From IMG/VR virus record IMGVR_UViG_3300023296_001674: 64,000 nt of DNA; one strand, 5' to 3'. A program made the position numbers and the translations under genes. Below are positions 4,027 through 52,060 of this stretch, one piece after another (position 1 is the first letter of the stretch; the number at the start of each line of letters is the position of its first letter). Below the pieces are notes generated by a model, which saw only the letters and a list, made by a program, of their open reading frames with translations, had not been told where the DNA came from and ran no database searches. This DNA is from a virus.

Positions 4027-4056
4027 TTGACAGGTGTATAACAAATATATTATATT
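4027..4056 (+). promoter_or_regulatory. sigma70-type promoter candidate overlapped by a palindrome
   Basis: TTGACA (4027-4032), 18 nt, TATATT (4051-4056). 28 nt before the ATG at 4084. Confidence 0.45.
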
Positions 4057-4298: not shown

Positions 4299-4835
4299 GT
4301 GATTAAAGAGTTAAAAGATAGATATATTGATGATATAGGCAGGGTGATAATGACCACCGATGGTCTTATTGATATGTTAATGAAGCAACAATCAATCGAA
4401 GGTTTATTGGTTGAAGAATGTGACGACACACTTAAATATAATACAAATATCGATAACAACAAACAGTTAGAAATATACTCAGACGAGAAAGCGAACGAAA
4501 CACCTGATATATATGATTCAATTGCCACAACTAGGTGGAAAACACCAGAGAAATATCAAATTGCAGATGATGCATTAGTAACGTGGTTATTTGAGAAATG
4601 TAAATCTGAAAATGAATACAACAGAGTTTTAATGGAATTAGAAATGTTTGATGATCGTGGGTTATATCCATTACTTAAACATTTAATATTTTTGGTAGAT
4701 CATTTTAGAAAAAACAATATTGTATGGGGTATAGGGCGCGGATCGAGTGTTTCATCATATATTTTATTTCTCATTGGAATACACAGAGTTAATTCGATTG
4801 ATTTTAATTTAAACATCAACGATTTTTTAAAATAA
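4299..4835 (+). CDS. Stand-alone DNA polymerase III alpha (DnaE) fragment-like protein
   Basis: C-terminal 70 aa (YNRVLMELEMFDDRGLYPLLKHLIFLVDHFRKNNIVWGIGRGSSVSSYILFLIGIHRVNSIDFNLNINDFLK) parallels the DnaE segment ...GYFLIV.DFI.W.K.NGI.VGPGRGSAAGSLVAY.L.IT..DP..F.LLFERFLN. The ORF stops just before the position of the catalytic PDFD.DF motif. GTG start is uncertain. Confidence 0.55.
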   Translation: MIKELKDRYIDDIGRVIMTTDGLIDMLMKQQSIEGLLVEECDDTLKYNTNIDNNKQLEIYSDEKANETPDIYDSIATTRWKTPEKYQIADDALVTWLFEKCKSENEYNRVLMELEMFDDRGLYPLLKHLIFLVDHFRKNNIVWGIGRGSSVSSYILFLIGIHRVNSIDFNLNINDFLK

Positions 4836-4846
4836 GGAAAAATTAA

Positions 4847-5209
4847 ATGGTAAAAAGACATAAAAGTGCTAAAGGTGATCAAATAGATTTTGATCTTTTG
4901 CAACTTAATAATAAAGAAGTGGTAGCCATTGGTAATGCCAGCATGAATGCAAACGGCGATACATTAGGAAGGGGTGGAGTAATTGTTCGAAAAGTAGACG
5001 ATATCCCCAAATCACAATTAGCAGACCCTAATGCAGCATACAATCAACAAAATCCAAAATCGACTAAATTAGTTAGTTTAAAGAGTGCAGTTGTAGTTGA
5101 TGACGTTGTTGTAGAAGCGACACCCGAAGTGGTGGTTGAAGAAACAGTCGTTGATGAAATCGAAAAAAAGCAAAAATCTAAAAGAAAAATAATTGACAGC
5201 GAAGAGTAA
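4847..5209 (+). CDS. Hypothetical protein
   Basis: AAGGAAAA RBS. V/E-rich C-terminal half with a KKQKSKRK tail. Confidence 0.5.
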   Translation: MVKRHKSAKGDQIDFDLLQLNNKEVVAIGNASMNANGDTLGRGGVIVRKVDDIPKSQLADPNAAYNQQNPKSTKLVSLKSAVVVDDVVVEATPEVVVEETVVDEIEKKQKSKRKIIDSEE

Positions 5210-5222
5210 AATGTAGTATACT
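5193..5222 (+). promoter_or_regulatory. sigma70-type promoter candidate
   Basis: TTGACA (5193-5198), 18 nt, TATACT (5217-5222). ATGTAGTAT box at 5211-5219. 33 nt before the ATG at 5255. Confidence 0.5.
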
Positions 5223-5254: not shown

Positions 5255-5644
5255 ATGGCTACCGATTTTGATTATAGTACAACTGGTGTATTAACACCAA
5301 TTCGCGATCATGTTATAGTTACAGAAATGGACAACGAAGATGAGCGAATAGTTAACGGCATCATTCTGTTAAGTGAAACAGGATCAGACCGTGGCATCCA
5401 CCCAAGACAAGCATATGTAACCGCAGTAGGGCCAGATCAATCAGATGTGGCACCCGGCGATTGGATATTGGTCGAACACGGACGATGGACACGTGGTGTA
5501 AAATTAGACGATGGAAATATATATCGCAAAGTTGACCCATCTTGCATATTGGGAATAACTGGCGATAAGACTGACGATCTTCAGGTAATGGGCGACAAAG
5601 TTGTTAATAATTCTAGACATAATATGGGCGGGTTTGACGAATAA
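5255..5644 (+). CDS. groES: GroES-like co-chaperonin (T4 gp31 analogue)
   Basis: LTPIRDHVIVTEM..ERIVNGIILLSETG...AYVTAVGP....VAPGDWILVEHG follows the GroES pattern (P.GD.V.V...E....GGI.LP......G.V.AVG.G....V..GD.V). TGGAG RBS. Confidence 0.6.
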   Translation: MATDFDYSTTGVLTPIRDHVIVTEMDNEDERIVNGIILLSETGSDRGIHPRQAYVTAVGPDQSDVAPGDWILVEHGRWTRGVKLDDGNIYRKVDPSCILGITGDKTDDLQVMGDKVVNNSRHNMGGFDE

Positions 5645-5695: not shown

Positions 5696-6619
5696 ATGTC
5701 AATTAAAGAATTATGGACCGAAAAATATCGTCCAAAACGAATCGAAGATTATGTATTTCGTGATGAAAAACAGAAAAAACAAATAGAAGCATGGGTTTCA
5801 GAAAAAGCAATACCACATTTGCTATTATCTGGCACCCAAGGTATCGGCAAAACAACAATCGCGAAGGTTTTATTTCGTGAATTAGAAGTTCCACCAGAAG
5901 ATATATTAGAGTTGAATGCCAGTGATAACACTGGTGTTGACGATATGAGAAATCGCGTTGGTAGTTTTGCAAGCAGAATGCCATTTGGTGAATTTAGATA
6001 TATTTTATTAGATGAAGCAGATTATTTAACACCTAACTCACAAGCAGTATTGCGTGGATATTTAGAGAAATATTCGGCAACCTCGAGATTTGTGTTGACC
6101 TGCAATTACGATTATAAAATCATACCAGCATTGAAAAGTAGAACGCAAGGGTTTCATTTAGAAAAACTTGATCGTGGTGAATTCGATATTCGAATTGCTA
6201 CCATATTGGCGTCAGAAGGCGTTGAATTTGATGCATCACTTATGGATTCATTTATTGAAGCCACATATCCAGATTTGCGCAAGTGTATTAATGATTTACA
6301 ACAAAACGTCGTTGATGGAATATTGACATTACCAGTGGTAAGTTCAGGCAATGATGATTATAAAATATTAATGGTTGAATTGTTTAAAGATAAAAAAATA
6401 AGAGAAGCAAGAAAATTGATTTGCACACAAGCAAGACCAGAAGAATATGATGATATATATAGATTTTTATATCAAAACTTGCAATATTTTGGTAATGAAC
6501 AAAATCAAGAAACTGCCATTATTAAAATAAAAGAAGGTTTGGTTAATCACGCTATTTGTGCCGATCCTGAAATAAATCTTGCCGCTACAATGGTAGAACT
6601 AGGATATTTGATGGAATAA
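5696..6619 (+). CDS. Sliding-clamp loader large subunit (RFC small-subunit / T4 gp44 type AAA+)
   Basis: LWTEKYRPKRIEDYV, Walker A SGTQGIGKTT, Walker B ILLDEADYLT, sensor-1 FVLTCNY, SRTQGF. Confidence 0.85.
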   Translation: MSIKELWTEKYRPKRIEDYVFRDEKQKKQIEAWVSEKAIPHLLLSGTQGIGKTTIAKVLFRELEVPPEDILELNASDNTGVDDMRNRVGSFASRMPFGEFRYILLDEADYLTPNSQAVLRGYLEKYSATSRFVLTCNYDYKIIPALKSRTQGFHLEKLDRGEFDIRIATILASEGVEFDASLMDSFIEATYPDLRKCINDLQQNVVDGILTLPVVSSGNDDYKILMVELFKDKKIREARKLICTQARPEEYDDIYRFLYQNLQYFGNEQNQETAIIKIKEGLVNHAICADPEINLAATMVELGYLME

Positions 6620-12301: not shown

Positions 12302-14182
12302 ATGGTCAATAAAGATGAAGAAATTGATGCACTCAATCCATATCAACACTCGCGGTTGCGTACAGAAGTGTATAGTGGTTCAAGACAACCACACACCCAA
12401 GAAGTTATCATATACAATGAAAAACATGAACCAATAATCGAAGAAGTTACGTGGATTCCTGCATTATTAACATATTATAGAGAAATAGTCGATAACGCTT
12501 GTGATGAAGTTATCGGTCTTGGCAATGGCAATCGCGTCGACATAAACTTTGATAAAGACACCTTCGTGTTTAGTTGCACGGATAATGGTAGAGGTATTCC
12601 TATAAAGCCGGTTTCGAAAACTGATGATACACCGATGGCAACCGCCGTATTGACTAGAACTATGATGGGAAGAAATTTTAGAGAGCGCAAACAAGTTGGT
12701 GGACAGAATGGTATGGGTGTAGCCATTTCTGTATATTGCAGCAAGTGGTCTAAGGTAGAAATTCGCCGTGATAAAAAATTGTTTACACAAAGTTTCGCGG
12801 AACACGATATTGAATTAATGATCGAGTTTCCTAAAACAAAAAAAGATAAAAATGTTACCACTGGAACAAAAATAACTGTATCACCAAGTGAAAAGGTGTT
12901 TCATGGTGGATTGATTATGCCTGAACAATTTTTATATTCACGTATATTTGATGTAGCATTGGCTAATCCTACTGTGCAAATATTTTATAACGGTAAGCGC
13001 ATTCGTGTTAGACCGGCAAGTGAAAAAACATTATTTCCTAACGATGATACCGTGTATATCGACATTCGTGAAAATGCATTTCGATCACGATTTATATTGA
13101 AACCAGATTTTCGTGTTGGTGATGTAATGATGCATTCGATTGTAAATAACATACCTGTTTTTGATGGTGGTTCACATATCGATGCTTTCACCACCGCGTT
13201 CTATTCTGGCTTACTTAATGCTATGGCATCGCAAGCAAAGAAACGCAAATTGACGTTGCATAGAAACGACGTCAACAGCGGATTATTAATATACAATATC
13301 ACAACTATGGATGCTCCTGATTTTAACTCACAAGCCAAAACAAAATTGATCAATGAAGATGTTGGTAAGATAATCAAAAATTATTTTACTGATGAAAAAG
13401 TATTCAAAGATATTATTAAAAAGAATCCAACATGGGCCGAATCGATATTAGAACGTTGTGAAGCAAGAACGCAGAAAAAAGAAGAAAAGGATGTTGCAAA
13501 ATTATCCAAGAAAAATCTACGAGGGCGCGTTCCTGAATTGCTAGATGCTGCTGGTAAAGATAGAAGCAAGTGCATACTATTGCTTGGTGAGGGCGATTCT
13601 GCTGTATCAGGCATACCACCAGTGCGCGATCCTGACATTCATGGCGTATTGGGCATTCAAGGTAAGATCATGAACGTTAACGGCGAACGTCCAAAGAAAG
13701 TATTAGATAGTGCAACGCTGTCATCATTGATGACAACCATTGGCTTAGTTATGGGGCAAGTAACTGTTCGCAAAGAAATGAACTACGGTAAAGTTTACTT
13801 TGCTACTGATGCTGACCCTGATGGATTAAATATTGCTGCATTGTTAGCCAATTTCTTTTATACTTATTGGCCTGAATTATTTGACCCTGATAAAGAACCT
13901 GTGTTCTACATCTTCAATACGCCGTTTATTATTGCCCGTAAAGGAAAACAAAATAAATATTGGTATTCACACGACTTTAATGATTTCATACCAACTGAAT
14001 TTAAAGGATGGGAAATAACAAGAGCAAAAGGTTTAGCGGCATTGGAAGAACCTGATTGGATTTATTCATTGGCTAAACCCGATTTATACCCGCTAACTGA
14101 TGATGGCAGAATGGTAGAAGCATTAGATTTGATATTTAATTCGGATTTAGCGGACGCACGCAAATTATGGATCGGACTTTAA
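12302..14182 (+). CDS. DNA topoisomerase II large subunit (T4 gp39+gp60 equivalent, GyrB-type ATPase + TOPRIM)
   Basis: GHKL ATPase motifs EIVDNACDE, DNGRGIP, GQNGMGV. TOPRIM LLLGEGDSA and ATDADPDGLNIAALL. Single uninterrupted ORF. Confidence 0.9.
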   Translation: MVNKDEEIDALNPYQHSRLRTEVYSGSRQPHTQEVIIYNEKHEPIIEEVTWIPALLTYYREIVDNACDEVIGLGNGNRVDINFDKDTFVFSCTDNGRGIPIKPVSKTDDTPMATAVLTRTMMGRNFRERKQVGGQNGMGVAISVYCSKWSKVEIRRDKKLFTQSFAEHDIELMIEFPKTKKDKNVTTGTKITVSPSEKVFHGGLIMPEQFLYSRIFDVALANPTVQIFYNGKRIRVRPASEKTLFPNDDTVYIDIRENAFRSRFILKPDFRVGDVMMHSIVNNIPVFDGGSHIDAFTTAFYSGLLNAMASQAKKRKLTLHRNDVNSGLLIYNITTMDAPDFNSQAKTKLINEDVGKIIKNYFTDEKVFKDIIKKNPTWAESILERCEARTQKKEEKDVAKLSKKNLRGRVPELLDAAGKDRSKCILLLGEGDSAVSGIPPVRDPDIHGVLGIQGKIMNVNGERPKKVLDSATLSSLMTTIGLVMGQVTVRKEMNYGKVYFATDADPDGLNIAALLANFFYTYWPELFDPDKEPVFYIFNTPFIIARKGKQNKYWYSHDFNDFIPTEFKGWEITRAKGLAALEEPDWIYSLAKPDLYPLTDDGRMVEALDLIFNSDLADARKLWIGL

Positions 14183-15295
14183 TTTTATTTTCTTCCAGTC
14201 TCTTTCCCACATTGTAATGACATTATATCCTGCATTTATTAACATTAATTCTTTTTTAATAGTATTATCATATAATTCACCCATTGTGCATTTTGTTCGT
14301 TTATTATAAACCGATCTATCAAATATTTCTGGATTGCCGTGCCAATAATCGCCATTGAATTCATAAACAGTGTTGGTTATTGGGTTATAACCATCTACAA
14401 ATTTATCATTGATTTTTTGTTCTAATATTATATTTTTATCATTTAAACTATTGAACCATTCGGTTGCTGGTTTTGATATACGATACCTACATGATGGACA
14501 TCCGGTACCCATTTTGTGTGAATTTGCCTCTTGATAAAATTCGCCATGTTTTGGACATATTATAATTATTTTTTCAACGCATCCATTATATTCGGTTTTT
14601 GAATAATTGTATTTGTAATTATGTATAATTTCTACCTGTTTAATGTATTCTTCGGTTGATATTAATTTGTCTTTATAAAAGCATTTGATGCATCCACCGC
14701 CATTATAATGCGTATCGATTCGTTTTTTAAAAATTCCATGTGTTTTACATATTATTTTTATTTCTTGTTTATAGTTAGTATATTGATTGATTAACGAATA
14801 GTCATATTTATTATCGTGTACAATATTAAATAAATTTATCATATCGATGTGTGTTTCAAATTGTTTTAATTTATTTCGTCTTATTATTTCACTACATTGT
14901 TGACAGCCTTGACCTTCTAAATGCCTTGACGCTTGTGTGATGAATTTTCCATGCTTTTTGCATATAATTGTAATTTTATCATGTGAGTGTGTGTAGACAG
15001 TATCCGTGTAATCATATTCATTATCAAATATTTTTTTTGATTTTTTAATAAATTCTTGAATATTGCTTTTGTTTTTGATTTTATTTTTAATTCCTGCGCT
15101 TATTCTACCGCATTTATAACAGCCGACCCCTTTTTTATGTTGCCATGCCATTAATTCAAAAATGCCATGTTCTTGACATATAATTTTAATTTTTGTATCT
15201 GCATTTTTATAATCAACTAATGAATAATCAAATCGATTATTCCATTTTTTAACAAATCGATCAATAACAATAGCAGTGGTTAATTTGCTTGACAT
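14165..15295 (-). CDS. Homing-endonuclease-like protein (repeated Zn-ribbon modules, restriction-endonuclease-like C-terminal domain)
   Basis: Five repeats of (Y/F)DYS...Y.....KI.IIC..HG.F......H..G.GC..C. C-terminal NTVYEFNGDYWHGNP...MGELY...GYNVITMWE is homologous to 9040..9933. Its 3' end overlaps the topoisomerase gene by 18 nt. Confidence 0.6.
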   Translation of the reverse strand: MSSKLTTAIVIDRFVKKWNNRFDYSLVDYKNADTKIKIICQEHGIFELMAWQHKKGVGCYKCGRISAGIKNKIKNKSNIQEFIKKSKKIFDNEYDYTDTVYTHSHDKITIICKKHGKFITQASRHLEGQGCQQCSEIIRRNKLKQFETHIDMINLFNIVHDNKYDYSLINQYTNYKQEIKIICKTHGIFKKRIDTHYNGGGCIKCFYKDKLISTEEYIKQVEIIHNYKYNYSKTEYNGCVEKIIIICPKHGEFYQEANSHKMGTGCPSCRYRISKPATEWFNSLNDKNIILEQKINDKFVDGYNPITNTVYEFNGDYWHGNPEIFDRSVYNKRTKCTMGELYDNTIKKELMLINAGYNVITMWERDWKKIKLKSDP

Positions 15296-16707: not shown

Positions 16708-17169
16708 ATGAAAATTAGATATAAAATAGGAGATTTGTTGGATTGTCCTGAACAAACAATATTGCAGGGAGTTAATATGCAGATCAAAATGCGATCTGGG
16801 ATAGCCAAAGCAATTCGTGAAAAATACCCAGAAGTTTACGAAGAATATAAAAAAGTCGCAGAAACAAAGGGTTTACACCTTGGTGATGTTATATGGGTGG
16901 CAACAGATGATAAATTGATAGCCAATGGTGTCACACAAGAATTTTATGGCAGAGATAATAAGTGCTATATTGATTACGAGGCGATACGAACGGTAATGAA
17001 AACTATTAATTCTTGTGCTATATTGAGTAATATTACGCATGTATCCATGCCATTAATAGGTGCAGGATTGGGCGGCGGCGATTTTAGTATAATTTCAAAA
17101 ATTATTGAAGAAGAGTCCAAGAATTTTCAACCGGTTGTGTATGTATTAACAGAATCTGATCTTCCGTGA
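16708..17169 (+). CDS. Macro-domain protein (ADP-ribose binding / hydrolase family)
   Basis: GVNMQIKMRSGIAKAIREKYPEVYEEY and HVSMPLIGAGLGGGDF match macro-domain signature segments. ATG 16708 preferred over TTG 16705. Confidence 0.7.
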   Translation: MKIRYKIGDLLDCPEQTILQGVNMQIKMRSGIAKAIREKYPEVYEEYKKVAETKGLHLGDVIWVATDDKLIANGVTQEFYGRDNKCYIDYEAIRTVMKTINSCAILSNITHVSMPLIGAGLGGGDFSIISKIIEEESKNFQPVVYVLTESDLP

Positions 17170-18037
17170 GTTTTTTACATTGCCAATTTTTTAATAGTCC
17201 GCGATTGGGTTTATAGTTTTCGTTTTTCCACATTTTGGTTAAAGTCCATATTGGCAAGTTCAAATCTTCCGAAAACGTGATTAAAGTTCCGTATGCTAAA
17301 TATATATTGTTATCGGGTGCAACAATCCTCCAAATATGTTTTTTTGCATTATTATATTTTAATGTATCTGTTCTTTTTTTAATAGACTGTGGTGATAATG
17401 GGTTAGTTTTTATACCTTTATTCCATGGAATATTACCTTTTAGTGTGTTGCTTATTTTCTGTCTCACATCTAATCGTTTTGATGAACTAAGAGCGCCCGT
17501 TCTGCCAGTTGGTCTACCGGTCAAAGTTTTGCTTATTTTTTGTTTTATATTATCTGCATTAGAACCAAATCGTTCCATAAATGATTTTCCTTTATGGCGT
17601 AAACTCATTTCATATTTTATTTGCGTCGCTTTTTCTTTTCCGTATCTTTGTTCTAATGTTATACCTTTTAATTTTTCTCTAAGTAAATTTTTTGTATATT
17701 CTGAAGTTTTGCTACCTTTTCTGTTTGGTGGTCTAAGACCAAGGCATATATTGGTTAATATTCCGTTTTTTTCAAAATCTATTCTGCCATATTGACGAAT
17801 TAATTTATCTTCTAAATCATATGCATCATTTTCAGATAAATGTTTTGATACAATATGTATAATAGGATGTTGACCATTTTTCAATATATTTTGTATTTTT
17901 TTAAACTTTCTTTTATTATCAGCATTGGCTTCAGTTTCCGTCAAATGTATGAGATAGCGATTTTTGCATCCTTTGCCGATATAAAACGGCTCATTGGTAT
18001 ATGGATCATAATAAATATAGACATAATAAGTATTCAT
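17102..18037 (-). CDS. GIY-YIG homing endonuclease (Seg-like) with NUMOD3-type repeats
   Basis: Starts MNTYYVYIYYDPYTNEPFYIGKGCKNRYLIH (GIY-YIG), with an AGGAG RBS 8 nt upstream on the minus strand. The listed start (18193) adds an implausible 52 aa. Repeated K.K.S..L.G. modules. Its 3' end overlaps the macro gene by 68 nt. Confidence 0.85.
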   Translation of the reverse strand: MNTYYVYIYYDPYTNEPFYIGKGCKNRYLIHLTETEANADNKRKFKKIQNILKNGQHPIIHIVSKHLSENDAYDLEDKLIRQYGRIDFEKNGILTNICLGLRPPNRKGSKTSEYTKNLLREKLKGITLEQRYGKEKATQIKYEMSLRHKGKSFMERFGSNADNIKQKISKTLTGRPTGRTGALSSSKRLDVRQKISNTLKGNIPWNKGIKTNPLSPQSIKKRTDTLKYNNAKKHIWRIVAPDNNIYLAYGTLITFSEDLNLPIWTLTKMWKNENYKPNRGLLKNWQCKKLTEDQILLIHTQPVENSWTLLQ

Positions 18038-18091
18038 GCTGTAAACTCCTGTATAGTTTATAGTGTAATTGGGTGTTCCATCACCGCGAAT

Positions 18092-18123
18092 TACATTACT
18101 ATTTATTAATAAATAGTAATGTA
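18092..18123. repeat. 32-bp perfect palindrome
   Basis: TACATTACTATTTATT|AATAAATAGTAATGTA. All 16 pairs verified. Lies in the divergent intergenic region between 18037(-) and 18170(+). Confidence 0.9.
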
Positions 18124-18169
18124 TCCAACAATTGAGGATTAATATTATGCAGGTGAATGACACAATATA

Positions 18170-18784
18170 ATGGCAAATAATGATATACATCAACTTTTAG
18201 TTGAATCAAAACAACGAATATCCAAGTATGATGATATGCTAAACGAAGCAGAACGCACTTTTCGTGAATTAAACTCCCGTAATATGCAAGCAACGTTAAT
18301 ACAGATCGAAGATTTCTTTGACTCCAATAATCTATATGCATTTAATAATTGGTTTGAAGGTATCGTTTGGGATGGCCCAAATATTACCAAATATTGGATT
18401 GAATTAACGTTGAAATATACGTATGAATCAATGCCAGAGCCAGTTGCGATGAATCGTTTCAGTGAAATGGGCGTTCAATATGATTTTGTTGATACCATAA
18501 TAATGAAATCCAAAAAAGTTCAAAATCCTGACGACCTTGATCCAGTGACACGTAAGCCAAAAGAAGAAAAAGAACGTATATGGTTGGTTTCACTTAAGAT
18601 TCCTAGACATTTAGTTGAAGACCCAATGCCTGATGATTCAGAAGATGTTGATAATGTTCAAAACTTAGAAGCCACTGCGAACGCTGAAGAAGAAGCTAAA
18701 GGCAATCCAGACATGGAAGAAGCAGATGATATGACTGCGGACGATGGCGCAAGCGATGAAGGCGGCGACGAACTTGATTTATAA
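18170..18784 (+). CDS. Hypothetical protein with strongly acidic C-terminal tail
   Basis: The C-terminal ~55 aa is D/E-rich (…EEADDMTADDGASDEGGDELDL). Confidence 0.5.
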   Translation: MANNDIHQLLVESKQRISKYDDMLNEAERTFRELNSRNMQATLIQIEDFFDSNNLYAFNNWFEGIVWDGPNITKYWIELTLKYTYESMPEPVAMNRFSEMGVQYDFVDTIIMKSKKVQNPDDLDPVTRKPKEEKERIWLVSLKIPRHLVEDPMPDDSEDVDNVQNLEATANAEEEAKGNPDMEEADDMTADDGASDEGGDELDL

Positions 18785-22517: not shown

Positions 22518-22594
22518 GGGCGTGTATTCCAACCGGTAGAGAAACGAGACTTAAAATCTCGACAGTGTGGGTTCGAATCCCACCACGCCTACCA
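22518..22594 (+). tRNA. tRNA with anticodon UAA (Leu by anticodon) but class-I architecture; CCA encoded
   Basis: Hand-folded cloverleaf. Acceptor GGGCGTG/CACGCCT (G1-U72). D loop with GG. Anticodon stem CGAGA/TCTCG, loop CTTAAAA (TAA at 22552-22554). 5-nt variable region ACAGT. T arm GTGGG-TTCGAAT-CCCAC. Discriminator A, then CCA. Confidence 0.75.
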
Positions 22595-22598
22595 CATA

Positions 22599-22676
22599 GC
22601 TTCCGTCGTCTAACTGGATAAGGCACCCGACTTCTAATCGGGATATTTGTAGGTTCGAGTCCTACCGGGAGCACCA
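22599..22676 (+). tRNA. tRNA-Arg (anticodon UCU); CCA encoded
   Basis: Acceptor GCTTCCG/CGGGAGC. D stem GTCT/AGGC. Anticodon stem CCCGA/TCGGG, loop CTTCTAA (TCT at 22633-22635). T arm GTAGG-TTCGAGT-CCTAC. Discriminator A, then CCA. The variable region reads as 6 nt. Confidence 0.8.
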
Positions 22677-24021: not shown

Positions 24022-24257
24022 TGGCAAAAGTTATTTTACGCGAACCAGTAGATGTAATACGTTGGTGGCCGGGGGGCGACGAAATTGAAAATGTTACCGA
24101 GGTTCGTCATACTCAACTAGGATTTATTGGTCATTTGCAACAAGATGGAAATACGCTCATGGTAAAACCTGGTGATTATGTATTGTCATTTCTTGGAAAG
24201 CAAATAATAATGAATGAAGAAATTTTCAAAATCAACTTTAAAGGTCACAAAGAATGA
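24021..24257 (+). CDS. Hypothetical protein
   Basis: Translationally coupled on both sides (TAATG, ATGA). Confidence 0.5.
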   Translation: MAKVILREPVDVIRWWPGGDEIENVTEVRHTQLGFIGHLQQDGNTLMVKPGDYVLSFLGKQIIMNEEIFKINFKGHKE

Positions 24258-24646
24258 ATCAAGATATATGGGATCGATTAGATAAAGTTAGCACATTCAG
24301 GCTTACTTCATATTTGAAAAATGAATATCCACAAGTGGTTGGTGTCATTCTTTTCAATTTGTCTAGGAAAACGGTTGCTGGTGTAATGGATGAATTACCA
24401 GAAAATTTTGCTATGGAAGTTGTAATGCGTATGTTGCGCACGGATGATGTTCGCAAGGAAGTTATTGATATCATTGAAGACACATTACAGGATGAATTTT
24501 TTAATAATGTAGTCACTTATGACAATAAAGAAAAATTTATAGGTGATATGTTCGATGTTATGGTTCATTCTGATCACATGGTAGAACAGCTTGAAGAACG
24601 CAATCGTGAAATGGCTGAAAAAGTTAAGGGGTATATGGACACATGA
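24254..24646 (+). CDS. FliG middle-domain-like protein (flagellar rotor/switch homolog)
   Basis: LKNEYPQVVGVILFNLSRKTVAGVMDELPENFAMEVVMRMLRTDDV aligns by eye with E. coli FliG [46 protein letters not shown] (recalled), including the EHPQ-type motif. Confidence 0.7.
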   Translation: MNQDIWDRLDKVSTFRLTSYLKNEYPQVVGVILFNLSRKTVAGVMDELPENFAMEVVMRMLRTDDVRKEVIDIIEDTLQDEFFNNVVTYDNKEKFIGDMFDVMVHSDHMVEQLEERNREMAEKVKGYMDT

Positions 24647-25161
24647 TTAATCAATCTATGATAGAAGCATTAATACCGACAATGAAGAACACTGCATTTA
24701 AAGGTATTTGCACTAATCCAGATATTCAACTTGATAATTTGGCACTTATGACATTTGGTGAATATGTTGATACAATACCGCTTCCTGCAATGTGTTGTAA
24801 GTTTGATTTTGCTGGATATGCTGCATTTATCATATTTGATAGTTCATTGATATATTCTATGGTTGATGTTTTATCTGGTGGTCGTCGTGGCACCGCTGCA
24901 ATGCGAATTGAAGGCAGGGGATATACAACAATTGAAAAGCGCATTATTAAAGAATTAGTAATGGAATCAATTGTGAATGAGTTATTGTATGAACTCAATA
25001 TATTATCAAAAGATATATATATGGAAATAGAACATATAAGTCTCAGTCCAGATAATATGAGAAAGCAATTATCTGAAAATGAAATGGTTCAAATTGCACG
25101 AATGAGAGTAGACTTGGATGACCGTGGTGGTCGTTTCGAATTATGCGTTGAAGAACATTAA
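24643..25161 (+). CDS. FliM-like protein (N-terminal peptide + middle domain; no FliN-like C-terminal domain)
   Basis: AAFIIFDSSLIYSMVDVLSGGRRGTAAMRIEGRGYTTIEKRIIKEL versus E. coli FliM GLVVFSPSLVFIAVDNLFGGDGRFPTKVEGREFTHTEQRVINRM (recalled). GGxG motif present. N-terminal INQSMIEALI resembles LSQAEIDALL. Confidence 0.75.
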   Translation: MINQSMIEALIPTMKNTAFKGICTNPDIQLDNLALMTFGEYVDTIPLPAMCCKFDFAGYAAFIIFDSSLIYSMVDVLSGGRRGTAAMRIEGRGYTTIEKRIIKELVMESIVNELLYELNILSKDIYMEIEHISLSPDNMRKQLSENEMVQIARMRVDLDDRGGRFELCVEEH

Positions 25162-26639: not shown

Positions 26640-27083
26640 ATGATGGGTAAATCCATTTCACAAAACCGCAAAGTGCGCCATAACTATACCATTGATGATG
26701 AGTATGAAGCGGGTATTGTATTACAGGGCAACGAAGTAAAAAGTTTGGCTGTTGGACAGTGCAGCATTGCTGAATCGTATGTTACCATTGAAGGCAATGA
26801 AGCATTTTTGGTTAATGCGCATATTGATCCATATGATTTAGGTTCTAAGTTTGTGGCACAAGAGCCACGACGTCGGCGCAAATTATTGTTGCATAAACGC
26901 GAGATAAAGAATTTGCTTGTCAAATCGCAACAAGGGGGTTATACTATAGTTGCATTATCGATGTACTTCAATGACACGGGCAAGGTAAAACTTAAAATTG
27001 CCACTGCCAGAGGAAAGAAGAACTACGATAAGCGTGCCACGGAGAAGCAACGTGATTGGGATCGTGATAAGCGCAATTTATAG
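26640..27083 (+). CDS. smpB: SsrA-binding protein SmpB
   Basis: NRKVRHNYTIDDEYEAGIVLQGNEVKSL....I.ESYV...........H.DPY.......EPRRRRKLLLHKREI....K.QQGGYTIVALSMY....KVKLKIATARGKK.YDKR matches SmpB end to end. Confidence 0.9.
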   Translation: MMGKSISQNRKVRHNYTIDDEYEAGIVLQGNEVKSLAVGQCSIAESYVTIEGNEAFLVNAHIDPYDLGSKFVAQEPRRRRKLLLHKREIKNLLVKSQQGGYTIVALSMYFNDTGKVKLKIATARGKKNYDKRATEKQRDWDRDKRNL

Positions 27084-36618: not shown

Positions 36619-37419
36619 ATGACAAAAATTCAAGAATTTCTACAAGAAGCTACCGTAATAGATACCGAAACTACCGGCGTAAATTTTAAAGAAGATGAAG
36701 TAGTCGAAGTTGCAGGTGGACGTTTAATAAATGATGAATGGAAAGTTGAATCGCTTCTCATGGGTTCAAATAATCCAGTTCCACCCGGTGCAAGTGCCGT
36801 TAATAACATCAGTAATAAAATGATTGCAGGGCTACCAAAATTTGATCAATGCATAGAAACTATAAATGATATTGTACATGTAGATTCAACAAAATATATG
36901 GTTGCACATAACTCCAATTTTGATAGACGAATGATGCTTGTTTCTTATGAACGAGCAAATGATACAGTATTCAATAAATTCGAAATTCAAGAAGATTGGA
37001 TTTGCACATGGAAACTGGCACAACAATTATATCCAAAAGATGGTGTGATGAAATACAGTTTGGCGTATTTGCGATACTATCTTGAGTTAGACATCAGTGA
37101 TGATATGCTTGCTCACCGCGCTGGCGCAGATGTTACAATGTGTGGCATATTGCTTCAACGATTGATAGAAGAAGCCATCAAGCAAGATAAAATCGATGAT
37201 ACACAAGACATTGGTACACAATTACAAAAACTTTGTTGGCAACGAATGAATATAGATTTATGGCCTTTAGGAAAGCACAAAGGAACTAAGATATCAGAAG
37301 TTCCAACAAAATATCTCATGTGGTGCACCGATAAAATTGATTTATTGGATGAAACTCACACTAAATTCGATAAAGATTTATTCACTTCAGTAGTAAAAGT
37401 ATTAGAATCGAGGCTGTAA
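36619..37419 (+). CDS. DnaQ/ExoX-like DEDDh 3'-5' exonuclease
   Basis: Exo I VIDTETTG, Exo II MVAHNSNFDRRM, Exo III HRAGADV. C-terminal KHKGTKISEVPTKYLMWC resembles the ExoX C-terminal module. Confidence 0.85.
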   Translation: MTKIQEFLQEATVIDTETTGVNFKEDEVVEVAGGRLINDEWKVESLLMGSNNPVPPGASAVNNISNKMIAGLPKFDQCIETINDIVHVDSTKYMVAHNSNFDRRMMLVSYERANDTVFNKFEIQEDWICTWKLAQQLYPKDGVMKYSLAYLRYYLELDISDDMLAHRAGADVTMCGILLQRLIEEAIKQDKIDDTQDIGTQLQKLCWQRMNIDLWPLGKHKGTKISEVPTKYLMWCTDKIDLLDETHTKFDKDLFTSVVKVLESRL

Positions 37420-38535: not shown

Positions 38536-38564
38536 TTGACAAATATGCATTATTGACGTATATT
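38536..38564 (+). promoter_or_regulatory. sigma70-type promoter candidate abutting the dnaJ start
   Basis: TTGACA (38536-38541), 17 nt, TATATT (38559-38564). The ATG at 38571 lies 7 nt after the -10. Confidence 0.45.
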
Positions 38565-38570
38565 ATATCT

Positions 38571-39416
38571 ATGAAAAAATATTATGAAACATTAGAAGTC
38601 GAAAAAACAGCAACCGATGCCGAAATTAAAAAATCGTATCGCAAGTTGGCTATGAAATATCATCCTGATACAAATCCCGATGATGTAACAGCCGAAAATA
38701 ATTTCAAAGAAATAAATGAAGCATATGAGGTTTTATCCGACGAAACGAAAAAATCTAACTATGATACATTTGGCGATCCTGATGGTAGACCTACACCACA
38801 CACTAGCCAGCACGGTTTTGGTGGTGGTTTTCAATCAGCAACAGATTTTAATGATATTTTCAATGATATTATGAATGCACGAAGTGCACCAAAAAATGCT
38901 CATGCACAATCACAAATGACTATTACATTGGAAGAGGCGTATGTAGGATCATCAGTTGAGATAGAAATAACTAATCATAAAAATATATCATCAAAGCAAA
39001 ATATAAGAATTCCCGCTGGTATTAAACATGGTATGACGTTACGCCTTGCGGGTGCCGGTCATCATCACATTGAGGAGTTGCCACCCGGTGATTTATTGGT
39101 TAATATACAAATCACACCACATTCCATATTTACTGTGGTAGATTACAATTTAATCATGGAAGAAAAAATTAGCATGATCGAAGCCGTGTTTGGCAAGGAA
39201 ATAGAAGTTACTACATTGGCTGGAAAAACTTTGAAATTAGAAATTCCAAAAGGAACGCAACCAAATCATAAAATTCGATTAAAAGGTAAAGGAATGCCCG
39301 TATTAAACAGAAAAGATGTATTTGGTGATTTATATATAATTGTCAATGTTGAAATACCTACGAATATAACACAAAAACAACGAGATTTATTAAGTGAATT
39401 TAATGAAGTTTCTTGA
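38571..39416 (+). CDS. dnaJ: DnaJ/CbpA-like J-domain co-chaperone (no zinc-finger domain)
   Basis: J domain YYETLEVEKTATDAEIKKSYRKLAMKYHPD. G/F region GFGGGF. C-terminal beta domains. No CxxCxGxG repeats. Confidence 0.85.
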   Translation: MKKYYETLEVEKTATDAEIKKSYRKLAMKYHPDTNPDDVTAENNFKEINEAYEVLSDETKKSNYDTFGDPDGRPTPHTSQHGFGGGFQSATDFNDIFNDIMNARSAPKNAHAQSQMTITLEEAYVGSSVEIEITNHKNISSKQNIRIPAGIKHGMTLRLAGAGHHHIEELPPGDLLVNIQITPHSIFTVVDYNLIMEEKISMIEAVFGKEIEVTTLAGKTLKLEIPKGTQPNHKIRLKGKGMPVLNRKDVFGDLYIIVNVEIPTNITQKQRDLLSEFNEVS

Positions 39417-39441
39417 CAAAATATAAGTGTTAAGTTATAGT
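39413..39441 (+). promoter_or_regulatory. sigma70-type promoter candidate
   Basis: TTGACA (39413-39418, overlapping the dnaJ stop), 17 nt, TATAGT (39436-39441). 33 nt before the ATG at 39474. Confidence 0.5.
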
Positions 39442-39473
39442 TAGTTAATAGTTAATAGCACATAGGATGAAAT

Positions 39474-40004
39474 ATGATAGAAATTGTTTTAGAAGATGAT
39501 CCAGCATTAAAAATTGTTGTGCCACTATATGATTTTGACGAGCCGTTGAATATTGTAACTACACAAGATGAATTCGGTTTAACTGAATTCATTGATGCTA
39601 TGTTTGTGACCATGAAATTGAATAAAGGTCTCGGTTTGGCGGCTAATCAAATAGGACAAAACGTTCGCGTATTTGTTATGGATTTTTACGGCGAAGAATT
39701 TATTTGTATCAATCCAATAATTGAACAGTCATCAACAGAATTTACAATAGATCAAGAAGGCTGTTTAAGTTTTCCAGATTTATCATTAAATGTAAAACGA
39801 TCATCTGAAATATTTGTATCGTATTCAAATATCGATGGCGTTGAAATTCAAAGATGGTTATCTGGTATTACAGCTAGGTGTTTTCAACATGAACTAGATC
39901 ATTTGAATGGGATAACATTCGATTCACAAGTTGCAAAGCTAAGTTTAAAAATGGCTAAAGACAAAAGAAGAAAAAAAATAAAACAAAAACAAAGGAATAC
40001 CTAA
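39474..40004 (+). CDS. def: Peptide deformylase
   Basis: Motif 1 GLGLAANQIG, motif 2 EGCLSFP, motif 3 QHELDHLNG. Confidence 0.9.
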   Translation: MIEIVLEDDPALKIVVPLYDFDEPLNIVTTQDEFGLTEFIDAMFVTMKLNKGLGLAANQIGQNVRVFVMDFYGEEFICINPIIEQSSTEFTIDQEGCLSFPDLSLNVKRSSEIFVSYSNIDGVEIQRWLSGITARCFQHELDHLNGITFDSQVAKLSLKMAKDKRRKKIKQKQRNT

Positions 40005-42263
40005 ATGCCTAACGGATTTGACCAACGACACATTTCTATAATGCTTCAAAAAGCAGTAACATTAGCAGAAAAATACGATCACATATATATAACATTAGAA
40101 CATATCAGTTTAGTATTACTGGATGATAAGTCCGTTGATCACGGTATTAAAGAATGCGGCGGCGACATAAAACTTATTAAAGAAATGGTTTTGACTGCAT
40201 TGTTAGATGAAGCAGATATAACTGAAGCAGGAACTGAGCCACAACCAACAAGAGCAGTCATCAATGTTATTCAACGGGCAATCCAGCATTCTGTTGGATC
40301 AGGCCGCAATACAGTTGAACCATTTTATCTTATGGCAAGTTTGTTAATGGAAAAAGATTCCGTTGCTGTATGGGCATTAGCACAACAAAATGTTGATCGT
40401 GTAAGTTTTATTAGAACTATAAATGTTCCACCATCAGGACAAAATAAAGGTGGCCCGATGAATGAACTCGATCCTATAACGGGTCAACCTATGCCACAAC
40501 CTGAAAATGCATTAAGAGATTATTGTGTTAATTTGAATGAAAAGGTAATTGCTGGTGATATTGATCCATTGATAGGTCGCGAAAAAGAAATTGAACGGTC
40601 ACTACAAGTTTTATCTAGACGACGCAAAAACAATCCATTGCTTGTTGGTGAGCCAGGAGTTGGTAAAACCGCTATTGCAGAAGGATTGGCATGGAAAATT
40701 GTTAATGAAACCGTGCCAAATTATATCAAAGATTCTATTGTATATTCGTTGGATATTGGTGCACTTATGGCTGGTGCCAAATTTCGCGGTGATGTCGAAG
40801 AACGATTAAAAGCGGTTCTTGCCGGATTGGAAGAAGTTGGCAAAACCAACAAAACCATATTATTCATTGATGAAATTCATACCATTATTGGTGCGGGTGC
40901 TACATCAGGTGGAAGTATGGATGTTAGTAACCTATTGAAACCCGCACTTGCTGCTGGTTCATTACGTTGCATGGGTTCCACCACATATGCTGAATATAAT
41001 AAGTATTTCGAAAAAGATGCGGCACTTAAGCGTCGTTTCAAAAAAATTGATATTATTGAACCTACTGTTGATGAAACAAAAACTATTATCAAAGGTTTGG
41101 CAAAATATTTTGCTGAGTATCATGAAGTTAAATTCACAAAAGAAGCATTAATGAGTGCAGTTGATTTATCCGTTAAGCATATACACGATAACAAACTTCC
41201 AGATAAAGCGATTGATGTTATTGATGAGGCGGCGGCAGCACAAAGATTATTCGATGGCGAAGATCGCCTTGAAATCATTGATGTTAAACAAATTGAAGAA
41301 ACCGTTGCAAAGATTGCAAGGATTTCTATTGATGCAACATCAAAAACCGACAAAGATAGATTGCGTAACCTTGCAGAAAATCTAACAACACATGTGTTTG
41401 GTCAAGAAGAAGCGATTGATGTTCTAACCAAGGCAGTTAAATTAAGCAAATCTGGATTGCGTGAAGAAAATAAACCGATTGGTAATTTCTTATTCAGTGG
41501 ACCTACAGGCGTAGGTAAAACCGAAGTTGCAAAACGTCTTGCCGATGAACTAGACGTTCCGTTGGTGCGATTTGATATGTCTGAATATATGCAAAAGCAC
41601 GAAGTGTCTAAACTTATTGGATCGCCACCTGGTTATGTTGGTCATGATGATAGTGATGGATTTTTAATTGAAGAAATTGATAAGCATAATTATTGTGTTT
41701 TATTGTTAGATGAAATCGAAAAAGCACACCAAGATATATTCAACGTTCTGTTACAAGTTATGGATAATGCAACACTAACCGGTGGTCGCAATAAAACAGT
41801 GCGCTTTGACAATGTTATAATCATCATGACATCAAATGCTGGTGCATCAGACCTTGCAAAAGAAGTTATGGGATTTGGCAACGAAGAGCGAGTTGGCGAT
41901 GATCTTATAGCCATCGAAAAATTATTTACACCTGAATTTAGAAATCGTTTGGATAAAATCGTTGGATTTAAACCATTACAACAAGAAATAATGAATAAAG
42001 TTGTTGTTAAATTTATAAAACAATTGAAAGTTCAACTTAAAACACAGGATGTTAAACTTACGTTGATGAAGAAAGCCATTGAGTGGCTTGCCGTTAAAGG
42101 ATACAGTTCCAAATATGGAGCACGACCACTTTCGCGTGTAATAGACAATCATATCAAGCAGCCAATATCTGAAGAGTTATTATTTGGTCAACTTGAAAAT
42201 GGTGGTTCAGTTAAAATTGACATCGTTGAAGACGAACTTGAATTCACTTACAAACCAAAATAA
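40005..42263 (+). CDS. clpA: ClpA-type double-AAA+ unfoldase
   Basis: N-domain [67 protein letters not shown]2 [13 protein letters not shown] and [10 protein letters not shown]. About 750 aa without a long ClpB middle domain. MGFG loop in the ClpP-docking position. Confidence 0.9.
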
Positions 42264-43043: not shown

Positions 43044-43823
43044 ATGAAATTTACATTTCTAGGTGCAGGTAGCGCATTTACGATGGAAAACTATCAATCT
43101 AATATGATAGTGACATCAGATTCTGGAAAAAATTTATTAATTGATTGCGGTGGCGATGTGCGCCATAGTATGAAAGCGGCAGGATTTGGCGTAGCCGATA
43201 TTGATGCGATATATGTCAGTCATCTACATTCAGATCACACTTCTGGAATCGAATGGTTGGCGTTTAATACATATTTTAATGATGCCTTAAAACAACCAAA
43301 AATGTTTATCAATGAAAAACTTTCACGTGAACTTTGGGAAAATACACTACAAGGTGGACTTGGAAGCATACAAGGAAAAATAACCACCCTTGATTCATAT
43401 TTTGAAGTTACTCGTGTTATAAAAAACAAATGTTTCATTTGGGAGGATATTGAATTTAGACTCGTTCAAGTGATTCATTATATGGATGGATTTGACATTG
43501 TTCCATCATATGGTTTGTTGTTTACAGTGAATGGATTGAGATATTTCTTAACTACTGATGCTCAACATGCTCCTTCGCAAATTCAAGATTTTTACAACAT
43601 GAGTGATGTTATCTTTCAAGATTGTGAAACTACCCCGTTTGCATCCGGTGTTCATGCGCACTATGAAGAACTTATAACACTTAATGAAGAAACAAAAGCC
43701 AAAATGATACTATATCATTATTCAGATGGCGACAAGAAAGATTGCACCAACGATGGATTTAGATGTTGGGCAACAAATCAAATGGAAATTGATTTAAATA
43801 CAGGAACGGTAATTAACGCATGA
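43044..43823 (+). CDS. Metallo-beta-lactamase-fold hydrolase (RNase Z/PhnP-like)
   Basis: LLIDCGG, then the HxHxDH motif SHLHSDHTSG, then a later TTDAQH. Confidence 0.75.
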   Translation: MKFTFLGAGSAFTMENYQSNMIVTSDSGKNLLIDCGGDVRHSMKAAGFGVADIDAIYVSHLHSDHTSGIEWLAFNTYFNDALKQPKMFINEKLSRELWENTLQGGLGSIQGKITTLDSYFEVTRVIKNKCFIWEDIEFRLVQVIHYMDGFDIVPSYGLLFTVNGLRYFLTTDAQHAPSQIQDFYNMSDVIFQDCETTPFASGVHAHYEELITLNEETKAKMILYHYSDGDKKDCTNDGFRCWATNQMEIDLNTGTVINA

Positions 43824-49371: not shown

Positions 49372-50673
49372 ATGACACATATATCGTTATATAATAGCAT
49401 GTCGAGAGAAAAAGAAAAATTCAAACCAATAGACGATTCTCGCGTAACTATGTATTATTGCGGTATCACCCCTTATGATAAACCACATCTTGGTAACGTA
49501 AGAGCGAGTATCACTGGTGATATGATATATAGACTGTTGCGGGTTTTTTATAAATCAGAAAATGTCATATATGCTAGAAATATTACTGACATAGATGATA
49601 AAATCGAAGCAAAAAGCCAAGAAACAGGAAGGTCTGCGATTGATATAACGAATGAAACTATTCAATGGTTTCATGAAACTATGAAAGTATTACATGTATT
49701 GCCACCGGATTTGGAGCCAAGGGTTTCTGATAATGAAGAATCTATGATGGATATGATTAACATATTACTTGATAAAAATATCGCATATAAATCAAATAAT
49801 GGTGACATTTATTTTGAATTAGATAAATTTCCAGAACACGGAAAATTATGCCGCCACAGTCGCGAAGATTTAAATATAAATGAAGAACATTCTTCAGAAA
49901 AAAAACATCCACAAGATTTTGTTTTATGGAAAGAAAATCATCAACGATTTGGTTGGCATATTGAATGTTCCGCGATGATTAAAAAGCATTTGGGTGACAC
50001 TATCGATATTCATGGTGGTGGTGGTGATTTACGTTTCCCACATCATGAGAATGAAATAGCTCAAAGTGAAACTGCTAATGGTGTCCCATTGGCTAATTAC
50101 TGGATGCATAACGGTATGATTACAGTGAACGGAAAGAAAATGGCTAAATCTACTGGAAGCTTTATTACAGTCGATGAAGCACTAGATCGTGTTCCCGGCG
50201 AAGCGATACGATTTTACATGCTTAAGACGCATTACCGTAAACCGTTTGATTGGTCGTGGGATGGTTTGATGGAAGCCAAGTCTGAACTTGATGGGTTATA
50301 TAGAAAGATGCAGAAACGCACTTATGTTAAAATGGGTGGCGTGTCAGTACAAGTATTATATGCGTTGGCTGATGATTTGAATACACCATTGGTGATATCA
50401 GAATTATACAAAGAAGCGGATAAGGAAATATCTTCTTTATTGGATTCGGCGCAGCTATTGGGTATACTGAATCATACACCAGAAGAATGGTTTCATGGCA
50501 CAACGAAAGATTCATTACTTGATGCATCGTCAATCGAGGCACTTATTGAAGTACGGAAACTATTGAAAGAAAATGGCGACTATGAATCTGCGGATATAAC
50601 AAGAGATATATTATTAGGACAAGGCATTATACTTGAAGATAAACCAGATGGGACAACTTGGCGAAAAATATGA
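49372..50673 (+). CDS. cysS: Cysteinyl-tRNA synthetase
   Basis: MYYCGITPYDKPHLGNVRA (HIGH-type), GWHIECSAM, HGGGGDLRFPHHENEIAQSE, KMAKSTGS (KMSKS). Confidence 0.9.
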   Translation: MTHISLYNSMSREKEKFKPIDDSRVTMYYCGITPYDKPHLGNVRASITGDMIYRLLRVFYKSENVIYARNITDIDDKIEAKSQETGRSAIDITNETIQWFHETMKVLHVLPPDLEPRVSDNEESMMDMINILLDKNIAYKSNNGDIYFELDKFPEHGKLCRHSREDLNINEEHSSEKKHPQDFVLWKENHQRFGWHIECSAMIKKHLGDTIDIHGGGGDLRFPHHENEIAQSETANGVPLANYWMHNGMITVNGKKMAKSTGSFITVDEALDRVPGEAIRFYMLKTHYRKPFDWSWDGLMEAKSELDGLYRKMQKRTYVKMGGVSVQVLYALADDLNTPLVISELYKEADKEISSLLDSAQLLGILNHTPEEWFHGTTKDSLLDASSIEALIEVRKLLKENGDYESADITRDILLGQGIILEDKPDGTTWRKI

Positions 50674-51005: not shown

Positions 51006-52060
51006 ATGTTATATAATGACGATTGTTTAGTCGCAATGAAAAAATTAATTGAAGAAAATACACAAGTGGATTCTATTGTAACCGATCCGCCATATCATCT
51101 AACCAACACAAATGATGAAAATAAAGGTTTCATGGGTAAACAATGGGATGGTGGCGATATTGCGTTTAATGTTGAAACATGGAAACTCGCATACGATCTT
51201 TTAAAACATGGTGGTCATTTAATAGCGTTTAGTGCATCAAGAACATATCATCATATGGTGGTAGCCATTGAAAATGCGGGATTTGAAATACGTGATCAAC
51301 TTATGTGGCTTTATAGTTCAGGTTTTCCTAAAGGACATAATATATCTAAAGGATTAGAAAAAACCGGTGCAACACCTGTTGACATTGAAACATGGGAGGG
51401 ATGGAATACGGTGTTAAAGCCAGCACATGAACCAATAGTTTTAGCCAGAAAGCCATTAGAACCTGACTCGACTATTGCGCAAAACGTGTTGAAACATGAC
51501 ACAGGTGGTTTGAATATAGCCGACTGTAGCGTGGGCGATGAAAAAAGATTCAATCCAAGTGCAAGTAGCAATAAAATTTATGGTCAATTTGAAGGATCAG
51601 AAAAAGATGGTAGAGATTCTACAGGTAGATATCCAACAAACGTAATTCATGATGGATCAGATGATGTCAATGACGCTTTTCAAAAATATGCCCAATCGGG
51701 TGAAAATCCTATTCGTTTTTTTATGGGTCTAAAACATCTGAAACTGAACGCAATCATGGATCAGCAAATATTAAAAATACACACCCAACTGTTAAACCAC
51801 AAGATTTGATGCGTTATTTATGTCGTCTTATTACGCCTAAAAATGGAATAGTGTTTGATCCATTTATGGGTTCTGGATCAACCGGAATAGCTGCTAAAAC
51901 TGAGGGTTTTGATTTTATTGGCATTGAACGCGAATTAGAATATTTTGAAATATCTAAAAAACGAATAGAAACTGCATATCATGTTCCTAACAAAAAAGTA
52001 GTGTTGTCTACAGACAACAATGATTCTGTGCCAGACCTTGATGATATATTCAAAGAATAA
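51006..52060 (+). pseudogene. Beta-class DNA methyltransferase interrupted by a frameshift at a T7 run (pseudogene, sequencing error, or slippage-dependent)
   Basis: ORF 51006..51809 carries motif IV VTDPPYH. ORF 51806..52060 carries motif I FDPFMGSGST. Frame 2 is open from 51706 and reads ...FFYGSKTSSETERNHGSANIKNTHPTVKPQDLMRYL. The frames meet at TTTTTTT (51716-51722), and one extra T would give a single ~351-aa ORF. Confidence 0.75.

Follow-up and report, generated by a model that had tools for sequence, protein, structure and literature searches.

What should be made of an open reading frame (ORF) that resembles the palm of a replicative DNA polymerase and comes to an end just before the catalytic aspartates? 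The ORF in question occupies positions 4299..4835 of a 64,000-nucleotide stretch of the virus record IMGVR_UViG_3300023296_001674 (hereafter the window), which has 34.7% G+C and is coding on its + strand nearly throughout. A preliminary description of this DNA, made from its letters, took the ORF for an orphan fragment of DnaE, the alpha subunit of DNA polymerase III (Pol III alpha), and left its origin between a split gene, a domesticated fragment and a decaying remnant. We find that the ORF is real and intact. It represents the conserved N-terminal part of a minimal Pol III alpha-like enzyme that is divided between two genes and is of a kind already described. More precisely, we put at about 70% the probability that it encodes the N-terminal subunit of the two-gene minimal C-family nucleotidyltransferase typical of the RaK2/PA5oct/Atu_ph07/SCTP-2 ('group 2.2', T4-related) giant phages.

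The N-terminal unit of such a "minimal" split Pol III alpha was recognized in group 2.2 jumbo phages by Iyer et al. 2021 (Viruses 13:63, PMC7824862), who found its C-terminal unit encoded far away, proposed the minimal enzyme as a model of the ancestral form, and suggested that it acts alongside the family B polymerase in the synthesis of one strand or in repair. Earlier genome papers had recorded the N-terminal gene as a truncated 'DNA polymerase III alpha' (CBB_328; Atu_ph07 gp316), and the annotation of phage Phosso labels both halves 'DnaE-like DNA polymerase III alpha'. We refer to the two products as the N unit and the C unit. The parts of the N-unit gene that the argument needs are these:

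4299..4835, + strand: N-unit gene of the split minimal Pol III alpha-like enzyme; GTG start, 178 amino acids (aa), TAA stop
4299..4592, + strand: residues 1-98, an N-terminal alpha/beta-plus-helix subdomain conserved within the family
4593..4829, + strand: residues 99-177, homologous to the opening segment of the Pol III alpha palm (E. coli DnaE 313-392)
4725..4745, + strand: the loop W143-G-I-G-R147-G148-S149, by alignment to DnaE the G[GS] loop of the Pol-beta-like nucleotidyltransferase fold
4833..4835, + strand: stop codon marking the conserved fission point; it follows ...[ED]FLK immediately and precedes the position of the DxD strand

The similarity of the N unit to the Pol III alpha palm is real and far above chance. 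PF07733 (DNA_pol3_alpha), the sole Pfam domain in the protein, matches residues 99-177 over positions 16-94 of its 260 with an expectation value (E) of 8.2e-9 and 35.9 bits, the curated gathering cut-off being 23.9 bits. A single-sequence search of PDB sequences placed the same residues weakly on E. coli Pol III alpha 313-392 (E 1.5); a profile built from 55 homologues matched Pol III alpha chains only (E 0.002-0.02), and one built from 86 sequences aligned by hhalign with E. coli DnaE 323-394 at a probability of 86.7% (E 4.3e-6). The AlphaFold2 model computed from the 86-sequence alignment has a mean predicted local distance difference test score (pLDDT) of 93.3, and the 15 best PDB matches that Foldseek returned for it are all C-family polymerases. 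Residues 1-98 gave no sequence match to DnaE; G14, W80 and P83 within them are invariant or nearly so across the family.

Residue by residue, G146-R147-G148-S149 falls on G361-R362-G363-S364 of E. coli DnaE (GPGRGSG), and the last residue of the protein, which terminates in ...NINDFLK, falls on N393, so that the catalytic D401 and D403 would be expected some 8-10 residues further on. Both observations of the preliminary description, that the last ~70 residues are homologous to DnaE and that the ORF ends just before the catalytic aspartates, thus hold. The catalytic carboxylates (E. coli D401, D403 and D555) are not part of the N-unit polypeptide, which stops short of them. Neither the PHP domain, thumb, fingers, beta-clamp-binding motif nor OB fold was found in the N unit, and phmmer with E. 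coli DnaE and the Pfam matches of every called gene uncovered no other DnaE-like piece in the window. Structures of Pol III alpha from Lamers and from Bailey and their colleagues (both 2006) and from Wing and colleagues (2008) reportedly show the G-S loop and the arginine that precedes it holding the incoming triphosphate, while three carboxylates are said to hold two metal ions in the same structures. We take the G[GS] loop of the N unit to have the same triphosphate-binding role.

Far from being an orphan, as had been supposed, the N unit is one of a large family whose members are free-standing proteins of about 175 aa. PHROG 11127 covers it end to end (E 3e-45, residues 3-178 on profile positions 2-171 of 171). 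Among 5.8 billion proteins 347 homologues were detected, the best 120 of which are all 160-193 aa long, and HMMER, run exhaustively over 1.84 billion cluster representatives, returned at least 492 clusters at E<=1e-30; the best 150 of these representatives measure 157-196 aa each, with the last position of the profile at or near the C-terminus. Identity across these hundreds of sequences ranges from 33 to 71%. Among 86 aligned N units (36-71% identity) W80, R109, E113, W143, G144, G146, R147, G148, S149, S153, L156 and L177 are invariant and F176 nearly so. The preliminary description had proposed looking for an intact gene at this position in relatives; what stands there is the same ~175-aa gene. 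In 80 N-unit loci from IMG/VR the match of the hidden Markov model (HMM) reaches the last profile position, and the stop codon follows immediately in 73/80 and within 6 residues in 80/80. Hundreds of homologues that share a length, a stop position and an active-site loop make a pseudogene or a sequencing error effectively impossible. The identical 178-aa gene, with its PF07733 domain, was also called on the source contig ena:ERZ27315719:k141_202852 (570,549 bp), and six independent contigs carry the protein. These come from at least the ENA and Logan assemblies, one Logan contig deriving from run SRR7528804; the stop codon is therefore no accident of assembly.

In phage genomes, tblastn found the N unit in 96 records. 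Those listed are large myoviruses of the RaK2, 121Q/PBECO4, PA5oct, Atu_ph07, SCTP-2, XacN1 and RsoM2USA types, with the exception of one weak match to a 132-kb Clostridioides phage record. The closest phage versions of the window's N unit are those of SCTP-2, Phosso, Atu_ph07 and PA5oct, its identity to versions in isolated phages being 31-40%, and in Atu_ph07, RaK2 and MIJ3 the N unit is likewise a separate coding sequence of 169-178 aa.

If the N unit lacks the catalytic residues, a second protein would have to supply them. The text of PMC7824862 gives no accession for the C unit, and we located the partner by scanning the annotation of RaK2. The candidate, ORF124 (YP_007007279.1, 115150..115791, 213 aa), is annotated 'DNA polymerase', lies 33 kb from the N-unit gene ORF162, and belongs to phrog_11778 (E 6e-104), a family of C units of about 190-215 aa. 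Its sequence starts with ...TDIDIDV and contains HNSGVHF, KVDIL, MIRPGK and FKKPHAYAY. When the C units of RaK2, SCTP-2, PA5oct and Atu_ph07 are aligned with E. coli DnaE, their motifs fall on PDFDVDF (D401/D403), KFDFLG (K553/D555), VFQLES and FRPGP. D8, D10, D12, H39, G42, K71, D73, R140, P141, K143, F171, K172, K173, H175 and Y179 are invariant in 36 C units, whose shared motifs read TDIDID, HNxG, K.D.L (with the third aspartate), IRPxK and FKKSH..Y, and whose start lies no more than 5-20 residues ahead of TDIDID. The AlphaFold2 model of the SCTP-2 C unit (pLDDT 91.5) finds Pol III alpha in all of its 12 best PDB fold matches, with E from 3e-3 to 0.5, probabilities of 0.41-1.0 and template modelling scores (TM-scores), normalised to the query, of up to 0.55. 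The N unit ends, and the C unit starts, at the same point of the DnaE sequence. Between them, the two families therefore contain all the catalytic motifs of the Pol III alpha palm along with the first finger motifs, the thumb and most other parts having been deleted.

The two units keep company at a distance. The C unit was found by tblastn in 96 phage records, the same number as the N unit, and the counts by host agree closely (N-unit and C-unit records, respectively: Escherichia 34 and 34, Pseudomonas 11 and 11, Klebsiella 11 and 10, Erwinia 8 and 8, Salmonella 8 and 8). At least 48 accessions are common to the N-unit and C-unit matches listed, and no complete genome among the phage records listed was seen to carry just one of the two units. 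None of 80 viral N-unit loci has a C unit within 10 kb, and none of 80 viral C-unit loci has an N unit within 3 kb. Fused proteins that would join N and C (a Rosetta-stone test) were absent from these 80 and 80 loci, from the best 150 cluster representatives and from the homologues listed. The spacing between the two genes varies as follows:

10.8 kb: Alishewanella phage Slickus01 (141-kb genome)
about 15 kb: RAS14 and XacN1
31-34 kb: 121Q, RaK2 and CBB
44 kb: PA5oct
116 kb: SCTP-2
182 kb: Atu_ph07
224 kb: Phosso

In Slickus01 (OQ508957.1) the two units are separate genes, at 68346..68957 and 79796..80308, with an RFC-type clamp loader between them; since this genome falls under the jumbo size limit, the split enzyme is not confined to jumbo genomes. 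In RaK2, SCTP-2, Atu_ph07 and PA5oct the C-unit gene lies upstream of a small reverse-strand gene, which is followed by another gene (annotated as structural in RaK2, Atu_ph07 and PA5oct) and then by the gp61 primase and the gp41 helicase.

The reading that we prefer supposes an ancient gene fission that would have cut the Pol-beta-like palm between the helix after the G[GS] loop and the DxD strand. The N unit would retain the helices, the first strand and the W-G-x-G-R-G-S loop for the triphosphate of the incoming nucleotide, while the C unit (PHROG 11778), encoded at a distance by the primase and helicase genes, would contribute the TDIDID strand, the K-x-D strand and the IRPxK and FKKSH finger motifs. 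The two proteins would then associate, completing one beta-sheet and one active site, with neither half catalytic alone. With the loop on the N unit, the carboxylates on the C unit, and the break between adjacent elements of a single beta-sheet, we infer that the two form an obligate heterodimer that would rebuild one active site. Residues 141-150 of the N unit, which comprise the loop region, are the block of lowest confidence in the monomer model (pLDDT 80) and form no strand there, which is consistent with a need for the partner's sheet. The reconstituted enzyme would do without PHP, thumb, clamp-binding and OB domains. The putative complex may complement the T4-type family B polymerase as a second polymerase that perhaps repairs DNA, fills gaps or synthesises one strand.

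Does this genome encode the other half? The preliminary description had suggested that the ORF could be part of a split gene with its partner elsewhere, and in relatives this is borne out by the separate C unit that lies 11-224 kb away and by the account in PMC7824862; the partner in this genome did not come to light in the sequence searched. That sequence comprised about 82 kb, from about 96.3 to 177.2 kb of the 570.5-kb contig, with the N unit at about 164.2-164.7 kb, and included 8-9 kb on each side of the window. The C-unit HMM, run with filters off against six-frame ORFs of the window and these flanks, gave noise only (best E 0.75), and PHROG scans of ten window ORFs of about 200 aa gave no DnaE-like match. 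With the spacing observed in relatives, a partner far away is what one would expect here, and it seems reasonable to suppose that this genome encodes a C unit elsewhere.

The genes around the N unit offer further context. The relevant features are these:

4027..4056, + strand: sigma-70-like promoter match TTGACA-18 nt-TATATT (11/12), intergenic, before the ORF of 71 aa, the N unit and the ORF of 120 aa
4081..4296, + strand: upstream ORF of 71 aa, its stop 2 nt before the GTG of the N unit
4847..5209, + strand: downstream gene of 120 aa, phrog_14844 (E 2e-16)
5255..5644, + strand: GroES/gp31-like gene, present in 77/80 viral loci
5696..6619, + strand: gp44/RFC-type clamp-loader ATPase (Pfam AAA/RFC), present in 67/80 viral loci
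36619..37419, + strand: stand-alone DnaQ/RNase T-type 3'-5' exonuclease (PF00929; phrog_192 'DNA polymerase exonuclease subunit', E 2.7e-46)

The order N unit, phrog_14844 gene, GroES/gp31-like gene and gp44-type clamp loader is kept in the window, Atu_ph07, RaK2 and MIJ3. An HMM for the phrog_14844 gene finds it in 77 of the 80 viral loci. In 74 of them it lies no more than 83 nt downstream of the N unit, in the others at a distance of 212, 499 and 3568 nt; of the three loci in which it is missing, two have almost no sequence downstream. Its product, of about 70-215 aa in the family, has a conserved N-terminal domain of some 50 residues (G-K-x-[VI]-D...N-E...A-V-G-N...N-A-R-G-D...G-G) and a variable, charged tail, and gave no similarity to Pfam, PDB sequences or DnaE (hhalign against DnaE, E 0.29). 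We considered the 120-aa ORF as a continuation of DnaE on account of its ...QIDFDLL, which recalls PDFDVDF, and rejected it: the second acidic residue is D, E, A, S or G in 77 homologues, and with no similarity to DnaE besides, the resemblance of IDFDLL is coincidental, the real DxD being on the C unit. The earlier observation that the next gene is unrelated thus holds, and phmmer and the C-unit HMM support the other, that no continuation is visible downstream in any frame.

Upstream of the N unit gene content is variable among the 80 loci. The 71-aa ORF has no Pfam or PHROG match and no homologue in any of these loci (0/80). The promoter-like match at 4027..4056 is a hint, and a hint only, that one promoter might serve the three ORFs that follow it; a similar match at 5193..5222 lies ahead of the GroES-like gene, and such matches are overall no more frequent in the region than in shuffled controls. 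The RaK2 homologue of the DnaQ-type exonuclease, ORF117, lies 4.4 kb from its C unit, and it is tempting to speculate that this exonuclease proofreads for a Pol III-like enzyme devoid of a PHP domain. The contexts of the two units (clamp loader by N, primase and helicase by C) and the exonuclease fit a role linked to replication, without proving it.

Several points weigh against the two-gene enzyme as we have outlined it. The C-unit profile aligns weakly with DnaE (hhalign E 0.014, probability 3%) and has no match among PDB sequences, and its Pfam matches lie below cut-off, as in RaK2 ORF124 with DNA_pol3_finger (E 0.024), although 21 of 36 C units do match this domain individually (best E 1.2e-3). 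At the level of sequence the homology of the C unit to DnaE is accordingly weak, and its link to Pol III alpha is drawn from motifs, predicted fold and published analysis. Neither the window nor the 8-9 kb on each side yielded the C unit of this genome, none of the best 120 of at least 6134 matches to the C-unit profile in the protein database comes from the 570-kb contig, and the source contig was not among the loci returned by C-unit scans of IMG/VR and JGI metagenomes. The monomer model gives the N unit a confident fold of its own (pLDDT 93), which makes an independent role conceivable. Finally, with its thumb, most of its fingers and a clamp-binding motif missing, the enzyme may be no conventional polymerase.

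This last point leads to an explanation that we regard as unlikely: the halves would form one enzyme that is not a template-dependent polymerase, such as a terminal transferase, an enzyme that makes or extends primers, or some other nucleotidyltransferase. Besides the missing PHP, thumb, most fingers, clamp-binding and OB domains, the location of the C unit near primase and helicase genes would suit such an enzyme, and these phages already possess a complete family B polymerase (RaK2 gp43; PMC7824862). The finger motifs that contact template and nucleotide (RPG-like and KSH-like) are nevertheless retained and invariant in C units, the best fold matches are to replicative Pol III alpha chains, and both genes sit in replication modules. 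It is also possible, and in our estimation distinctly unlikely, that the system has more parts, with N unit, C unit, phrog_14844 protein, clamp loader and DnaQ-type exonuclease acting as a small-subunit, clamp-linked, proofreading second replicase or as a non-replicative nucleotidyltransferase, or that the C unit is lacking here and the N unit is alone. An improbable alternative, close to the earlier idea of a fragment that binds the host beta, tau and epsilon subunits, is a domesticated N unit that acts alone and without catalysis, as a replisome adaptor or regulator near the clamp loader or as a binder of host proteins. Its confident monomer fold, the grouping of its gene with GroES-like and clamp-loader genes instead of with the C unit, and the failure to find a C unit in the readable 82 kb of this genome would all agree with that. 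The invariant residues are, however, those of the nucleotide-binding W-G-x-G-R-G-S loop, with which a pure binding module could dispense, and in isolate phages the N unit co-occurs with a gene that bears exactly the missing catalytic residues. The surfaces by which E. coli DnaE contacts beta, tau and epsilon lie in regions that the N unit lacks, and the suggestion of host-subunit binding finds no support.

The two remaining explanations treat the gene as broken. That its product is rejoined by trans-splicing, the gene having been interrupted by an intein, intron or homing element, we consider very improbable. Cyanobacteria do have split DnaE genes (DnaE-n and DnaE-c) healed by a split intein, and the window holds several homing-endonuclease genes; the N unit, on the other hand, ends exactly at the DnaE junction with no intein-like extra, the C unit starts so close to TDIDID as to leave little ahead of it, and the two genes are always separate, 11-224 kb apart. 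To a decaying remnant of a full-length dnaE, or a dnaE broken by an error of sequencing or assembly, we attach almost no credence. The abrupt stop before the catalytic motif and a coverage of about 12% of a bacterial DnaE first suggest it. Homologues in isolates and metagenomes alike show the same length, active-site loop and stop, however, and this refutes decay, while the stop at the same junction in 80/80 loci, the identical gene on six contigs and the lack of any DnaE-like sequence downstream dispose of a hidden full-length dnaE. We therefore return to the two-gene minimal enzyme as the best account of this ORF.

Elsewhere in the window we made a number of observations on other genes. A set of translation and proteostasis genes is found at 26640..27083, 38553..42263, 49372..50673, 56372..57643 and 22518..22676, encoding SmpB, DnaJ, peptide deformylase, a ClpB-like ATPase, and CysRS-like and class II aminoacyl-tRNA synthetases; tRNA-Leu(taa) and tRNA-Arg(tct) also belong to this cluster. 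Genes for ClpS, a SpoU methylase, Thg1 and an NAD-dependent DNA ligase lie in the flanks of the window. Two adjacent small genes at 24254..24646 and 24643..25161 (+ strand) match the Pfam families FliG_M and FliM of flagellar switch proteins, which are unexpected in a phage. The gene at 43044..43823 (+ strand) has a metallo-beta-lactamase fold and a Pfam match to Anti-Pycsar Apyc1, and is a candidate counter-defence nuclease for cyclic nucleotides. In a region that is otherwise on the + strand, the minus-strand genes at 14165..15295, 17102..18193 and 55573..56295 carry domains of homing-endonuclease type (DUF723, GIY-YIG, NUMOD3), the first of them directly after a gene for a GyrB-like topoisomerase II subunit. 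The overlapping ORFs 51006..51809 and 51806..52060 (+ strand) both match the N6_N4 DNA methyltransferase family and may represent a split or frameshifted gene.

By its N-unit gene this phage, uncultivated and about 570 kb in size, can be recognized as related to the RaK2/PA5oct/Atu_ph07/SCTP-2 group, and the two-piece, stripped-down Pol III alpha would thereby extend to phages of that size. Such an enzyme would be the smallest known version of the catalytic core of the bacterial replicase. For annotation we recommend 'Pol III alpha-like, N-terminal unit of a split enzyme', and advise against 'DNA polymerase III alpha', 'truncated' and 'pseudogene'.

The nearest known counterparts are the members of PHROG 11127 in isolated phages (RaK2 ORF162, YP_007007317.1; Atu_ph07 gp316, YP_009611981.1; CBB_328). 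The window's N unit resembles them in length, in its ...EFLK-type end point and in its invariant GRGS loop, and shares with them a gene block of a small unknown gene, a GroES-like gene and a clamp loader; it differs in coming from an uncultivated contig of about 570 kb, in whose 82 kb of searched sequence no C unit was seen. Bacterial Pol III alpha (DnaE, as in E. coli PDB 2HNH and 5FKU, and PolC) has in common with the N unit a Pol-beta-like palm with the G[GS] motif (PF07733), and is a protein of about 1160 aa as against 178, the N unit having none of the PHP, catalytic aspartates, thumb, fingers, beta-binding and OB domains. Other phage families of partial DnaE, phrog_13169 (463 positions), phrog_12219 (823) and phrog_11165 (782), match the same segment or start near the junction, yet are much longer and keep PHP or complete fingers. 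The profile of phrog_12219 starts at about E. coli DnaE residue 399, and fission of phage dnaE at this junction may therefore have occurred more than once. The intein-split DnaE of cyanobacteria is alike in that a C-family catalytic subunit is made from two distant genes. There, however, the break lies elsewhere and an intein rejoins the halves, whereas in the phages the break falls inside the palm, before the DxD motif, with no intein, and the halves presumably stay separate polypeptides.

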